64,000 nucleotides of DNA from Escherichia phage vB_EcoM-VpaE1. The position numbers and the translations under genes are program-made. The stretch is taken from the sequence record KM657822; one strand, given 5' to 3'. Position 1 is the first letter of the stretch. Each line of letters opens with the position of its first letter. Shown piece by piece: positions 27,895 through 64,000 of the stretch. The notes under the pieces are model-generated. The model saw nothing but the letters and a program-made list of their open reading frames with translations. It made no database searches and was not told the DNA's origin.

Positions 27895-27970
27895 GGGGTC
27901 ATAGTTTATATGGTTAAAATTCGAGTTTTGCAAACTTGGGAACTGAGTTCAATTCTCAGTGACTCCACCA
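27895..27970 (+). tRNA. tRNA-Ala (TGC)
   Basis: Anticodon stem cgagt/acttg, loop ttTGCaa; CCA. Confidence 0.7.
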
Positions 27971-27976
27971 ATTAGT

Positions 27977-28051
27977 GCATCCATAGTTTAAACGGGAAAA
28001 TTACAGTCTTCCAAACTGAGGTTGAGGGTTCGATTCCCTCTGGATGCTCCA
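27977..28051 (+). tRNA. tRNA-Gly (TCC)
   Basis: Anticodon loop ctTCCaa; T-loop GGTTCGATTCC; CCA. Confidence 0.65.
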
Positions 28052-28057
28052 AATAAT

Positions 28058-28134
28058 GCTGCTTTCGTATAATTGGCTATTACACATCCCTTGTAAGGAT
28101 GGAAATGCAGGTTCGAGTCCTGTGAGCAGCACCA
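28058..28134 (+). tRNA. tRNA-Thr (TGT)
   Basis: Anticodon stem catcc/ggatg, loop ctTGTaa; CCA. Confidence 0.7.
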
Positions 28135-28229
28135 ATTCAGAGGTCAAGTGAAAGACCGCTGGTGTCAACTGAAGACCGTAACAAATTCCACGGAGTTGAG
28201 TTAGCGGCACAACTTCAGACCTCTTTCAT

Positions 28230-28304
28230 ACTCGCTTAGTTTATATGGTAAAACATCACCCTTACAAGATGAAGAAAAAGGTTCAAGTCCTTTAGTGAGT
28301 ACCA
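28230..28304 (+). tRNA. tRNA-Val (TAC)
   Basis: Anticodon loop ctTACaa; T-arm aaagg-ttcaagt-ccttt; CCA. Confidence 0.65.
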
Positions 28305-28305
28305 T

Positions 28306-28383
28306 GTTCCAGTATCCCAATTGGCAGAGGATGCAAGCTCAAACCTTGTACTAGTGACGGTTCGAATCCGTCTTGGAACACCA
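28306..28383 (+). tRNA. tRNA with CAA anticodon (Leu by anticodon; short variable arm)
   Basis: Anticodon stem gcaag/cttgt, loop ctCAAac; T-arm gacgg-ttcgaat-ccgtc; CCA. Confidence 0.6.
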
Positions 28384-28402
28384 ATTTTGAGAGGCTATTT
28401 AG

Positions 28403-28960
28403 ATGAGATATTTGAAGTATGCTTCATGGATTTTCCTAGCTTTACTAGAACCATTTGCAGCAACCCTAGCAGTCATCTTAGCACCTTTCGTAGTTCCATT
28501 CTACAGTGAGAAGAAAGGACATCTACCTTTTGGATTCAGATGGATGGAGACCTATGACAACCCAATTGATGGTGATGAAGGCCACGTTAAAAGATGGGCT
28601 AAGATTAGAAAGATTGGTAAGCTGGGTGTCTACATGCAGAGAGTTGGATGGCTCTGGAGAAACAAAGCTTATAACTTCTCTTACCATGTATTAGGAAGAG
28701 ATGTAAAAGATGTTACTAAGTGGAAAGGTAATATCAACGTAAGTTCTAACCCTGAAGATAATCAGACTGGTTATCTCCTAATGTGGAACAGTAATGCTTG
28801 GGGATTATTCGCTTTTATCCCATCAATTAAAGTCTTTGGTAAACAGTTTTACTGGAGAATTTATGTTGGGTGGAAACTTAAAAGTGTTGTCCCAGAAGAA
28901 AGAGCATTCTCAAGGGAAAGAGTTATGTTGGCATTCTTTATTCATCCACTGAGAAAGTAA
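28403..28960 (+). CDS. hypothetical membrane protein encoded inside tRNA cluster
   Basis: 185-aa ORF with N-terminal hydrophobic segment, Trp-rich; no tRNA overlap. Confidence 0.5.
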   Translation: MRYLKYASWIFLALLEPFAATLAVILAPFVVPFYSEKKGHLPFGFRWMETYDNPIDGDEGHVKRWAKIRKIGKLGVYMQRVGWLWRNKAYNFSYHVLGRDVKDVTKWKGNINVSSNPEDNQTGYLLMWNSNAWGLFAFIPSIKVFGKQFYWRIYVGWKLKSVVPEERAFSRERVMLAFFIHPLRK

Positions 28961-28968
28961 AGATTTAA

Positions 28969-29044
28969 AGGGGATTAGTTTACAAGGTTAAAACCTCGGT
29001 CTTTGAAATCGAAGAAGTTGGTTCAATTCCAACATCCCCCGCCA
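28969..29044 (+). tRNA. tRNA-Gln (TTG)
   Basis: Anticodon loop ctTTGaa; unpaired 1-72 (A/C); CCA. Confidence 0.65.
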
Positions 29045-29046
29045 AT

Positions 29047-29125
29047 GCTCCATTACTCCAATTGGCAGAGAGGCCAGACTTAAAATCTGTGTTATGTATC
29101 GGTTCGAATCCGATATGGAGTACCA
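29047..29125 (+). tRNA. tRNA with TAA anticodon (Leu by anticodon; short variable arm)
   Basis: Anticodon loop ctTAAaa; T-arm atcgg-ttcgaat-ccgat; CCA. Confidence 0.6.
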
Positions 29126-29130
29126 AATTT

Positions 29131-29206
29131 AGCGGTATAGCATAACTGGCAATGCAACAGTCTCTGAAGCTGTCCTATTAAGGTTCAAATCCTTATGCCG
29201 CTGCCA
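29131..29206 (+). tRNA. tRNA-Gln (CTG)
   Basis: Anticodon stem acagt/gctgt, loop ctCTGaa; CCA. Confidence 0.65.
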
Positions 29207-29237
29207 CTTCTAAGGGTTCTTACGAGAGTCCTTAAAT

Positions 29238-29313
29238 GTGGCCTTATCATAAATGGTAATGACCCATGCTGTGAACATGGTCTATACGGGTTCAAATCCC
29301 GTAGGTCACCCCA
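29238..29313 (+). tRNA. tRNA-His (GTG)
   Basis: Anticodon stem ccatg/catgg, loop ctGTGaa; CCA. Confidence 0.7.
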
Positions 29314-29318
29314 ATTTA

Positions 29319-29395
29319 TAGTCCAAGTAGCTTATATGGTTAAAGCGCGTGTCTGAAAAACATGAGAAGAGGGTTCAAATCCCACTGGACTACCA
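29319..29395 (+). tRNA. tRNA-Phe (GAA)
   Basis: Anticodon loop ctGAAaa; T-loop GGTTCAAATCC; acceptor register ambiguous by 1-2 nt. Confidence 0.6.
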
Positions 29396-29411
29396 ATTTC
29401 AAAGGTGCTTA

Positions 29412-30146
29412 ATGAAAGAGATGACAGAACAAGGTAAGGAGATTTTTAATCTCTTAAAAACCGGTAAAGGGTTTTCTAACCCACTTATTACTGGTGCAGC
29501 AGTTCTCGGTGGAACCGTAGCTGCCTCTACATCACTTGTAAGCTCTATTAGCTCTGTAACAGACCCTGCAATGAAGGAGAAACTTGTTGCTGCTGGACTT
29601 ACAACAGTCCTTCTAAACAGCTTTACAACAAGCCTTACAAGCACTACAGCAACTACTAAGACCCTAACAGACTACGGTCAAAAGTCTATTGATGAGTTTT
29701 CATCACGTATGCAGGTAGCAAAGGGATATTCCAATGTTATGGGTGCAGCAGGAGAACAGGTTGGTTGTACACCATTCAGTGGTATTATGGGTGTTGCTAC
29801 AGAATATGGTCAAAAAGCTATTGACACAATTAACAGTACACTAGATAGTGTTAATGGTGTGTTAAGTGACTTACAAGATGCTATTGATAAGGGTCTTGAT
29901 ACTGTTTCTGATTTAGCTAACCAAGCTGTTAGTAAGATTAATGAAGGTATCTCAAAGATTACAGCTTATGCAGATGAAGTTGTGCAGATGATTGAAGAAG
30001 AAGCTGCCCTTATTGCAGAGTACCTTAAAACGAATATCAATGGGTTCTTAGCAGGTATCTTACCAGACTGGTTTGACGATGCTTGTAAAACTGGTGTGAT
30101 TGACACTATTGCAACACCAGAAATGAAGAACGCATTACAGAAATAA
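29412..30146 (+). CDS. hypothetical protein (Gly/Ala-rich N-region, helical C-region)
   Basis: Start moved to ATG 29412 after aaaggtg RBS, downstream of tRNA-Phe. Confidence 0.5.
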   Translation: MKEMTEQGKEIFNLLKTGKGFSNPLITGAAVLGGTVAASTSLVSSISSVTDPAMKEKLVAAGLTTVLLNSFTTSLTSTTATTKTLTDYGQKSIDEFSSRMQVAKGYSNVMGAAGEQVGCTPFSGIMGVATEYGQKAIDTINSTLDSVNGVLSDLQDAIDKGLDTVSDLANQAVSKINEGISKITAYADEVVQMIEEEAALIAEYLKTNINGFLAGILPDWFDDACKTGVIDTIATPEMKNALQK

Positions 30147-30147
30147 T

Positions 30148-30240
30148 GGAAGATTAACCCTAAAAGGTAAGGGAGCAGTTTGCTAAACTGCTAGTAGCTG
30201 AGAAATCGGTGTACCAGTTCAAGTCTGGTATCTTCCTCCA
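30148..30240 (+). tRNA. tRNA-Ser (GCT)
   Basis: 93 nt with long variable arm; anticodon stem gcagt/actgc, loop ttGCTaa; CCA; begins 2 nt after upstream stop codon. Confidence 0.7.
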
Positions 30241-30244
30241 ATTT

Positions 30245-30320
30245 GAATCCGTGACAGAAATGGATATGTGCCTGTCTGCAAAACAGGTTTATAAGGGTTC
30301 AAGTCCCTTCGGATTCTCCA
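30245..30320 (+). tRNA. tRNA-Cys (GCA)
   Basis: Anticodon stem cctgt/acagg, loop ctGCAaa; T-arm aaggg-ttcaagt-ccctt; CCA. Confidence 0.7.
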
Positions 30321-61511: not shown

Positions 61512-62066
61512 TTAGTGTACTTCAAGCCAATTCTTACCAACTTTACCAGTACCAGTTACAAGCGTTTCCTCCTTAAGCCCTAAGTTTCTTGATGCCTGAC
61601 CATACATCCAGTCAATCACTGCTTTAACATCCTGTGTCATCTCTTCTGGGCACTCCCAACTATTCTCATCGTGGTATGCCAAAAGCAATCTAGCACCAAT
61701 AGCTGGTTTTCGACCATTCAGCTTTGTAAGACCCTCTTCACAAGTTCTTCTACAAGCGAGGTTGATGGCTTCATTCTGAACCTGACTTTCCGAACCCATG
61801 AGCAGATAATTCAATAGCTTGTGTGGAGATTTACACCACAACCATGCACCAGCAACCTTTACAAAACCACCTTTAGAGATTGCAGCAGTCTTACCAAATA
61901 CCTCTTCAAGAGCCTTCTTAGTGGCTTTGAAGTCTGCTTCTAAATTATCTATCAACTTCTTAATTTTAGGGAGGCGTACAAAGTATGTTTGCTTAGTTAA
62001 AGCACCCTCCTCAGTTGTAGATGCTTTAATCGTCTTAGCAAATTTCTCATCGCCAGCCCCGAACAA
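61512..62066 (-). CDS. DNA polymerase family A, C-terminal portion (downstream exon or fragment)
   Basis: Begins inside motif B (FGAGDEKFAKTI, cf. T7 YGAGDEK), contains motif C LAYHDE and the C-terminal GKNWLEVH. Confidence 0.8.
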   Translation of the reverse strand: MFGAGDEKFAKTIKASTTEEGALTKQTYFVRLPKIKKLIDNLEADFKATKKALEEVFGKTAAISKGGFVKVAGAWLWCKSPHKLLNYLLMGSESQVQNEAINLACRRTCEEGLTKLNGRKPAIGARLLLAYHDENSWECPEEMTQDVKAVIDWMYGQASRNLGLKEETLVTGTGKVGKNWLEVH

Positions 62067-62279
62067 TACATCTGGTCAATACACTCGCAAGGTGTACCAG
62101 TTCTCTTATGAACTTCTCCGCATTTCTACGGAGTGTCGGACTATATCACGTAGCAGTGGTGCTACCGTTGCACTTGGGGATGGTCATTAGCTTACCACCC
62201 TACTCTACTCAGTTCATACGTTAAGTATGCTTTTCGATAGTCTCTGAACGTTTCTCTGTTAGGAATCTCTATAGTTATG

Positions 62280-62516
62280 TTATTTGCTTAGGTAGTCAAT
62301 TGCTCTTTGCATATTATCAACGCTATCTGCAAGCAACCCCAAAGCTCTGTTGCAATTGTGGCATAACATACCTCTTACCTTTCCGGTTTTGTGGTCATGG
62401 TCAACAACAAGCTTAGCCTTGTGTCGTGAACCATTCATGATAAAACCTTCACCGCCACAAATTTGACATTTGTAATCACAGTTGCGGAGTAGAGTTTCGA
62501 CCTCTTCTCTTTCCAA
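62280..62516 (-). CDS. HNH endonuclease (Endonuclease VII family)
   Basis: CQICGGEG...LVVDHDHKTGKVRGMLCHNCNRALG. Confidence 0.75.
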   Translation of the reverse strand: MEREEVETLLRNCDYKCQICGGEGFIMNGSRHKAKLVVDHDHKTGKVRGMLCHNCNRALGLLADSVDNMQRAIDYLSK

Positions 62517-62740
62517 GCCATATTATGTCCTTTCTCACCGCAATGTGATGAACAATAAACTTGCCTTGCTGTTCTCGGCATGAACACCTCCTCACAGCTA
62601 GGACATTTCTTAGTAAGAACCCTGTGTTCTGCCCTTCTGTCAAATTTTAACACACAACTTCTGCACCGTTTTTGATTGTATTGGTACGGTTTAAACTCCG
62701 TGCCACACTCAGTGCATAATCTCTCTTCGTAACCTGCCAT
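62435..62740 (-). CDS. zinc-finger protein, probable N-terminal part of the homing endonuclease (different frame)
   Basis: CTEC...CRSC, CPSC...CSSHC cysteine pairs; overlaps the HNH ORF by about 80 nt in another frame. Confidence 0.5.
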   Translation of the reverse strand: MAGYEERLCTECGTEFKPYQYNQKRCRSCVLKFDRRAEHRVLTKKCPSCEEVFMPRTARQVYCSSHCGEKGHNMAWKEKRSKLYSATVITNVKFVAVKVLS

Positions 62741-62807
62741 TATCTCTCTCCTTTGTTTTAGGAGTCCTAACAGAGACTTCGCTGCTGATTACCATATCTT
62801 TACAGAC

Positions 62808-63974
62808 TTAGGCTTCCAGCAATTCACAACGTTTTACATGCGCCACTGACGCATAAATGCCATTTTTGGCTTTCTTACGACCTTTGCTAATTTCTTGAAG
62901 AAGATTTGTATCCTGAGTGGCTCGACAGGTCAAGATGTCTTCCTCTTTATTAAGGCTGAAGTAGATGCTATTTAAAGTATGCGCATCAGTTCCTGAGTAC
63001 ACTACGTACAAGTCATTTTCCGAATCATAATGCAAATACTTGTCAATCTCTGGGTTTAGATACTGGTCAAAATGTTTGCAATAGTACCTGCCATCCTCTT
63101 GTTTGACGAACTCAACCTCTTCTTTACCCTCTGTTACTGCTTTAGTGAACTCTTTATCACCCATAAAGTTACACAGCAGTACAAGTTGCGCGCTATTCAT
63201 ATCTGCTGAAACAATATTAGTTCCTTCCTCACAAGTCCAAACCTCCCTCATAGGTGCTCCATAGACAGCAGCACCAGACGGTACGTTTACAATACCATAT
63301 TGTGTCATACGTCCAGTTGAAGTACCAAACACCATTGCACCAGCACTAAGGCGACCATCAGGACGAATCTGGTTCAACCAACCTTTTTCATCATCCTTTG
63401 AGTTCTCAATAGTTCTGCGTCGGTGCATCAAAGTATAGTATTTCGCAATCTTCTGTCCAAGCTCACCTTCAATCGTATCATAGGATGATTCGGTAAGTTT
63501 TGGTGAAGTACGGATTAAGCAAGGTTCAAGCAAATCTGTGTACTTCTTAACAGACCAGTTATGCTCAATGTACTGTACACCTTCGTGCTCAACATAACTC
63601 AAACCACACCGCTCGACCATTTCCTGCCACTTAGGATGCTTTGTAATCATCTTTTTATTGTCTTTGAAACGACAAACTTTGACAGGGCGACCGTCTGAGT
63701 CTTTCTTGTAGTTCCAGTCATCTGGAATCCAACCAACTGATTTCAAGTAGTCTTTAACAACTGCTACCTGAGTCATACGAGAAACTTCAAACTCAATTGG
63801 TGTATATGGTGCATCAATCAAACCTGTGTAGCGACTTGACTCAAGTCCAAAGTGGTTAACAACGTGGCTGTTATAGTACTTCACAGTTTTGACTGTTTTT
63901 ACTGGCTTCCAGTCTTTGCATTTCTTACCAATCTTTGCGTTCAACTCATTGCAAATTGCACGAGCATCCTTCAT
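62808..63974 (-). CDS. DNA polymerase family A, N-terminal/middle portion (truncated by window end)
   Basis: PolA blocks GTSTGRMTQYG..NVP and motif A-like VSADMNSAQLVLL; ends with RKKAKNGIYAS aligning to the first half of motif B. Confidence 0.8.
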   Translation of the reverse strand: MKDARAICNELNAKIGKKCKDWKPVKTVKTVKYYNSHVVNHFGLESSRYTGLIDAPYTPIEFEVSRMTQVAVVKDYLKSVGWIPDDWNYKKDSDGRPVKVCRFKDNKKMITKHPKWQEMVERCGLSYVEHEGVQYIEHNWSVKKYTDLLEPCLIRTSPKLTESSYDTIEGELGQKIAKYYTLMHRRRTIENSKDDEKGWLNQIRPDGRLSAGAMVFGTSTGRMTQYGIVNVPSGAAVYGAPMREVWTCEEGTNIVSADMNSAQLVLLCNFMGDKEFTKAVTEGKEEVEFVKQEDGRYYCKHFDQYLNPEIDKYLHYDSENDLYVVYSGTDAHTLNSIYFSLNKEEDILTCRATQDTNLLQEISKGRKKAKNGIYASVAHVKRCELLEA

Positions 63975-64000
63975 TGCTACAAAGCCTTCCTTGTACTCTT

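Follow-up and report, generated by a model that had tools for sequence, protein, structure and literature searches.

Toward one end of the window analyzed here, a 64,000-nt stretch of the Escherichia phage vB_EcoM-VpaE1 genome (KM657822), two ORFs overlap on the minus strand, one encoding zinc ribbons (ORF1) and the other a nuclease domain (ORF2). A sequence-only reading had taken them for a homing endonuclease coding region split between two frames, and the arrangement raises the question of whether it reflects a frameshifted, decaying homing endonuclease gene (HEG), a programmed frameshift, or a sequencing error. The overlap in different frames, which that reading had put at about 80 nt, measured 82 nt (62435-62516), and the stretch open in both the ORF1 frame and the nuclease frame measured 88 nt (62435-62522). 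The two starts are 224 nt apart, so that, relative to ORF1, ORF2 reads in the -1 (= +2) frame (Table 1).

ORF1 follows a good Shine-Dalgarno sequence (AAAGGAG), and its two zinc ribbons show a CxxC...CxxC / CxxC...CxxxC pattern; profile searches returned weak zinc-ribbon or NinG-like matches only. Its sequence is exactly that of VpaE1_094, deposited as a 'hypothetical protein', and its 101-aa product forms a singleton protein cluster. ORF2, deposited in VpaE1 as 'endonuclease VII', belongs to a cluster of 77 members, the other listed members of which are 154 to 179 aa long, mostly 160 aa.

Table 1. Coordinates of the split endonuclease gene, its intron, and the flanking polymerase exons in the window
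Feature	Position	Strand	Sequence or remark	Basis
DNA polymerase (family A) exon 1, partial	62849..64000	minus	open to window end; ends at T 62849	
P1	62854-62849 with 62843-62838	minus	exon AUGCGU with GCGCAU; U.G at 5' splice site	
Group I intron, IA2-like	62069..62848	minus	780 nt (802 nt in relatives with intact HEG)	
P6/P6a helix, 5' strand	62765..62776	minus	UCUCUGUUAGGA	sequence reading; pairs 81-92/134-145 in RNAalifold
HEG fragment 1 (ORF1)	62435..62740	minus	101 aa; ATG start	ORF list, profile search, alignment
ORF1 residues 1-71	62528-62740	minus	native, two zinc ribbons	translation
Lesion	62524..62529	minus	junction 62529/62528	DNA alignments with relatives
HEG fragment 2 (ORF2)	62280..62516	minus	78 aa; TTG start; residues 83-160 of intact protein	
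ORF1 stop codon	62435-62437	minus	after 30-aa out-of-frame tail	
P6/P6a helix, 3' strand	62253..62264	minus	UCCUAACAGAGA	sequence reading; RNAalifold
Group I 'R' element, including P7 5' strand	62237..62249	minus	GUUCAGAGACUAU	Rfam consensus GUUCAaAGACUA in homologs
Group I 'S' element, including P7 3' strand	62138..62147	minus	GAUAUAGUCC	Rfam consensus GAUAUAGUC in homologs
DNA polymerase exon 2	61512..62068	minus	UA UUG UUC GGG ... to stop codon	

The two ORFs correspond to a single gene in close relatives

The 2.5-kb neighborhood of the locus matched 256 phage records, nearly all of them Felix O1-like myoviruses, with Salmonella phage Sl26 the best match (96.8%). An alignment with intact homologs, which the sequence-only reading had named as a check, was run, and 10 verified and translated relatives (Sl26, BPS15Q2, Seyj1-1, Si3, PC79-13, S.Kent 1-2-1, EC6, FSL SP-107, LinBro, and OPT-SAL01) each encoded one continuous ORF of 160 to 161 aa. 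In Sl26, BPS15Q2, EC6, and Seyj1-1, this ORF is annotated as one 483-nt 'endonuclease VII' CDS between two 'DNA polymerase' CDSs, and translation recovered it as a single ORF in the remaining six. ORF1 and ORF2 together are colinear with this one 160-aa gene, confirming that they are parts of a split endonuclease gene and not a chance pair of ORFs. The 801-nt introns of Si3, LinBro, and OPT-SAL01 were considered as carriers of further frameshifted HEGs and rejected; their ORFs are intact and the 1-nt difference lies elsewhere.

A net 22-nt deletion lies in the interdomain linker

Comparison with the relatives traced the split to one point. Where these read GAGAAAGG-TAGAGTTAAGAATTACTACCTAAGAAC-ATATGGCTTGG, VpaE1 reads GAGAAAGG-ACATA-ATATGGCTTGG, the 27 nt of TAGAGTTAAGAATTACTACCTAAGAAC having given way to ACATA (62528-62524) with a net change of -22 nt, which would most simply represent a 25-nt deletion plus a duplication of ATA. 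The codons for RVKNYYLRT are thereby lost from a protein that reads ...HCGEKG-RVKNYYLRTYG-LEREEVETLL... when intact, and a new TAA appears in the nuclease frame at 62523-62525. The single continuous ORF of the relatives, set against this deletion in the VpaE1 linker, bears out the decaying, frameshifted endonuclease among the three original options. All 16 phage-database matches across the junction spanned 123 bp, versus 101 bp in VpaE1. No other sequence with the lesion junction was found across four collections, and exact-match scans of IMG/VR, JGI metagenome contigs, and GTDB genomes did not return the exact 31-nt junction. Literature searches found no published description of the lesion, and the VpaE1 genome paper makes no mention of introns or homing endonucleases (PMC4690856).

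The position of the lesion in the interdomain linker, with the zinc-ribbon and nuclease coding parts both intact, follows from equal Pfam scores and from an alignment with T4 endonuclease VII that starts at residue 7. ORF2 matched Pfam PF02945 (Endonuclease_7) at E = 1.4e-19 and 70.2 bits (cut-off 23.6), the score being equal for ORF2 alone and for the intact 160-aa homolog, and it could be aligned to residues 7 to 72 of T4 endonuclease VII and to Hpy99I. K51E was the lone private amino-acid change seen in the alignment. This scarcity of other private changes suggests that the inactivating event was recent, and the otherwise undamaged domain halves give no independent sign of long-term relaxed selection, which counts against the reading of a degenerate gene.

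Alternatively, the real phage might carry an intact 160-aa gene, with the 22-nt gap having arisen during sequencing or assembly. The lesion is private to one record, the genome is a single Illumina assembly (PMC4690856), and errors do occur in the same gene, as in the UNVERIFIED drafts of Salmonella phages GE_vB_B1, B3, and BS. The errors in those drafts, however, are small slips, whereas in VpaE1 5 nt stand in place of 27 nt within nonrepetitive sequence, which is not a homopolymer slip. Moreover, a complex 22-nt indel is not a typical Illumina error mode, and the sequence to either side aligns without disruption, VpaE1 being colinear with its relatives except at the lesion point. We therefore regard an artefact as improbable.

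The small frameshifts in the three UNVERIFIED drafts affect the same HEG, with one A/G-rich run, GGAAAGAGAAGAGG, being the site of the break in both GE_vB_B1 and B3. They were considered as cases of independent decay and set aside as probable sequencing errors, because GEC_vB_B1, a later record of the same-named phage, carries endonuclease VII as an annotated gene in a normal intron of 805 nt.

Programmed recoding, the second of the original options, would need ribosomes to shift to the -1 frame, or transcription to slip, within the overlap in order to produce a full-length, slightly shortened endonuclease. The nuclease frame is indeed -1 relative to ORF1, both frames stay open over the 88 nt, and the A/G-rich TGG AAA GAG AAG AGG is the only segment in which shifting would preserve the CxxC zinc ligands. 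However, the ORF1 frame contains no slippery X_XXY_YYZ heptamer, and the sole homopolymer run of at least four (TTTT) is located after those ligands. The two-frame layout is, furthermore, private to VpaE1; all verified homologs are single-frame, so there is no conserved recoding signal, and a recent deletion would account fully for the layout. A programmed frameshift thus has a probability close to negligible.

The nuclease half retains the complete DHHRN signature

ORF2 had been labeled 'HNH' in the sequence-only reading, and this label held for a nuclease but not for a canonical HNH motif; the domain is of the Endo VII-type beta-beta-alpha-metal class, a sister of classical HNH. Its catalytic signature is complete, comprising C17QIC20, D39HDH42, R48, C52HNC55, and N56 (CX2C...DHDH...R...CX2C-N). 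The 'DHHRN' homing endonuclease family was defined around F-CphI of cyanophage S-PM2 (Fang et al. 2018, PMC6083498) by the signature CX2-4C / DHDH / R / CX2C-N, the residues of which are essential by mutagenesis (PMC6083498). [quoted passage not shown] Intron association, a feature of the family, was found in VpaE1 as well, where a polymerase group I intron carries the gene in its P6a loop. Another feature, a nuclease C-terminal to the DNA-binding region within one polypeptide, is present in the relatives and lacking in VpaE1, the halves of which are in different frames. Judged by its sequence, the VpaE1 copy is a broken DHHRN family member and a predicted pseudogene, in which only the single-polypeptide architecture fails.

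The intron HEGs of JH2, EC6, and FSL SP-010 (PMC6083498) share the zinc-ribbon/Endo VII domain order with VpaE1, with 80 to 96% identity of intron DNA. They are single 160-aa ORFs, whereas VpaE1 has out-of-frame ORFs of 101 aa and 78 aa and the net 22-nt deletion. F-CphI was 34% identical to the intact relative over residues 7 to 160 (E = 4e-11), an almost full-length homology, and shares the CX2C / DHDH / R / CX2C-N signature with ORF2. In contrast to the broken, intron-borne VpaE1 copy in a polymerase gene, F-CphI is free-standing, intact, and active, adjoins the psbA intron, and targets psbA. An Rfam match also recognized a related group I intron in the T7-like podovirus Yersinia phage AKS2022HT54S_phi (L011, 2300-2960), where it interrupts motif B of a family A polymerase gene. 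Its HEG is intact, 144 aa long, and 50% identical to the intact relative over residues 44 to 159, with Endonuclease_7 at 80 bits, but it has one zinc ribbon versus two in the Felix O1-like gene. By our reading, the insertion point of this intron lies 11 nt upstream of that in the Felix O1-like phages (AKTF^IYG versus IYA-L^). Yersinia phage records matching the VpaE1 intron numbered 34, at 60 to 80% identity.

More distantly, T4 endonuclease VII (1EN7/2QNC; E = 0.007) and Hpy99I (3FC3; E = 1.5e-5) belong by sequence match to the same beta-beta-alpha-metal fold family. The former is a Holliday-junction resolvase and the latter a restriction enzyme, and they differ from the VpaE1 gene in their other accessory domains and in not being intron-borne. 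I-TslI of phages PhiI/W31 was considered as the closest relative and dropped in favor of the DHHRN family; its intron occupies a different polymerase site, 881 in E. coli numbering, and it is grouped with the classical HNH enzymes (PMC3428280).

The split gene is carried by an apparently intact group I intron

The HEG and its own Shine-Dalgarno sequence are found inside the loop closed by the P6/P6a strands of an intron that begins CAGUGGCGCAU... and ends ...CCAGAUG, the terminal G being 62069. Features expected of a group I intron were present, including the U.G pair of P1, the terminal G, and in-frame ligation of the exons, as well as a conserved core (P3-P8), the R and S elements, and P7.1/P7.2. 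RNAalifold, applied to six homologs with the ORF cut out, returned P1, P3, P4, P5, P6/P6a, P7.1, P7.2, P8, and P9. Covariation was weak, at 2 compensatory pairs, since the cores scarcely differ. The P7 pairing GACUAU/AUAGUC was read by eye, as were the R and S elements, which could also be followed in the Rfam alignments of homologs. With P7.1/P7.2 present, the intron is IA2-like, a subgroup assigned by resemblance without a dedicated classifier.

At the Rfam gathering level, the VpaE1 window returned no intron match. RF00028 (gathering score 50) gave a partial match covering P4-P6 (62731-62821, 24 bits, E = 0.0028), the low score arising because approximately 470 nt of ORF interrupt P6a. The homologous ORF-less introns of phages Mushroom (311 nt) and D1-2 (268 nt) reached 62 bits on the same model. 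With Rfam subthreshold in VpaE1, the intron call is based on these ORF-less homologs and on the manual and RNAalifold structure. The ribozyme parts of VpaE1 are 92 to 100% identical to those of its relatives, and the intron is, on this model, apparently structurally intact. Since VpaE1 is a viable lytic phage that needs its polymerase, we infer that the intron still self-splices.

Sl26 and LinBro carry a 'hypothetical protein' annotation for a 38-aa ORF on the plus strand (62108-62224). As this ORF runs antisense to the ribozyme segment P7.2-P9, the gene call is very likely spurious.

The intron interrupts motif B of the DNA polymerase gene

Profile searches identified both ORFs flanking the intron as halves of a family A DNA polymerase, the gene that the intron interrupts in motif B. 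Exon 1 ends ...AUU UAU GCG U (62849), and its mechanical ORF extends to 62808 only by reading into the intron; exon 2 corresponds in GenBank to a separate 184-aa 'DNA polymerase' CDS. The predicted spliced frame of 1683 nt remains in frame through ...GRKKAKNGIYALLFGAGDEKFAKT..., which we take to correspond to motif B (T7 equivalent, AKTFIYGFLYGAGDEK), with a predicted ligated exon junction of ...ATTTATGCGT/TATTGTTCGGG.... Across this junction, the spliced product is identical to the intronless allele of Shigella phage Sf16, which likewise reads ...GRKKAKNGIYALLFGAGDEKFAKT..., and many relatives are intronless and colinear with the predicted spliced junction over 400/400 nt. Felix O1 itself has one 906-aa polymerase (PMC3185647).

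In VpaE1, as in most relatives, the polymerase is deposited as two CDSs, at 61512-62066 and 62808-63974 of the window (and beyond 64000), and the intron is unannotated in the records examined (VpaE1, Sl26, BPS15Q2, EC6, and Seyj1-1). Elsewhere in the window, ARAGORN identified a dense cluster of 25 tRNA genes on the plus strand (25483-30320), and Rfam counted 23; the VpaE1 paper states two different numbers, 20 and 22 (PMC4690856).

Relatives range from intronless alleles to ORF-less introns

Intronless alleles, HEG-bearing introns, and ORF-less introns all occur in the genus of VpaE1. Introns with an intact HEG were represented by 39 records covering at least 80% of the intron, and ORF-less introns by at least 21 listed records, in 268- or 311-nt versions; an ORF-less intron has also been noted for phage Meda (PMC6486253). 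The Mushroom and D1-2 introns contain the same ribozyme at the same site, with cores 92 to 100% identical to that of VpaE1, and would represent the next stage of HEG loss, the HEG being entirely absent from both whereas VpaE1 keeps a broken copy.

The 311-nt Mushroom intron (L006, 301-611) equals the HEG-bearing intron minus everything between two imperfect direct repeats, and by this comparison looks like a deletion derivative. One repeat, GACTCCTAAA, lies just upstream of the HEG Shine-Dalgarno (about 62753-62767 in the window), and the other, GACTACCTAAG, in the final HEG codons (about 62286-62297). In the 268-nt D1-2 intron, P6 is closed by a short hairpin, GCCUCUUAAGAGG, with a compensatory pair, and this form may be a different or ancestral state. 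When VpaE1 was compared with Mushroom, D1-2, EC6, and S.Kent, ribozyme parts were 92 to 100% identical versus 73 to 90% for the flanking polymerase exons, and the HEG of VpaE1 diverged from that of the EC6 clade by approximately 20%. These values suggest either that the intron has recently spread horizontally among diverged alleles of the polymerase or that the ribozyme is constrained far more strongly than the exons.

Discussion

'Homing endonuclease' and 'decay' are a natural reading of this region because the gene sits inside a group I intron that splits the polymerase gene. We consider it highly probable that the region is a degenerate DHHRN (F-CphI-like) HEG occupying the P6a loop of a group I intron that is itself structurally intact and lies in polymerase motif B. 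The ancestral gene would have encoded one 160-aa protein in which two N-terminal zinc ribbons, presumed to recognize the target DNA, were joined by a short linker to a beta-beta-alpha-metal nuclease domain at the C-terminus. Replacement of the 27-nt linker stretch by 5 nt puts the nuclease domain in the -1 frame behind an in-frame TAA. The native start would then yield the zinc-ribbon half plus a 30-aa nonsense tail only, and the nuclease half is left without a proper start of its own. As a site-specific enzyme the endonuclease would be inactive, and this copy of the intron would presumably no longer home by itself.

With the break exactly between domains, the pieces might retain some function. 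Neither zinc ribbon is damaged, the catalytic domain is complete, and the TTG start of ORF2 has AAAGGA 11 nt upstream, so that separately expressed pieces might form a noncovalent two-subunit endonuclease, or the zinc-ribbon fragment might act alone as a DNA-binding protein. A TTG with an 11-nt spacer is, however, a poor initiation site, no other family member is divided in this way, and the tail of ORF1 is out-of-frame nonsense. The phage's own genome, moreover, has no uninterrupted target site, leaving no obvious selection for either piece, and we find a functional split very unlikely. The TGA stop of ORF1 also shares bases with an ATG that is in frame with the nuclease (ATGA, ...GFIMNGS...; 62434-62437, minus strand), where reinitiation would give a 51-aa fragment without the first CxxC that is probably meaningless. 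Because both halves are undamaged and the break falls exactly in the linker, we leave a very small chance that one or both pieces work, either as a zinc-ribbon binder of the polymerase homing site or reassembled as a two-subunit enzyme. If so, a nuclease-dead zinc-ribbon binder might block cleavage by related endonucleases of co-infecting phages.

Under the favored reading of a decayed HEG, the 'hypothetical protein' and 'endonuclease VII' CDSs of VpaE1 would be annotated as halves of one dead HEG, and the two 'DNA polymerase' CDSs as exons of one gene, joined through splicing of the unannotated group I intron. The feature is ordinary, being the expected decay of a known type of element whose protein family is already published. 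In the model of Goddard and Burt, homing elements are said to cycle through invasion, fixation, degeneration, and loss, and VpaE1 would occupy the 'HEG degeneration' stage of this cycle. Together with its relatives, the locus provides a natural series of empty site, active-looking HEG, broken HEG, and ORF-less intron. The principle is textbook, and the series could be used for teaching the homing cycle or for studying intron dynamics in Felix O1-like phages.
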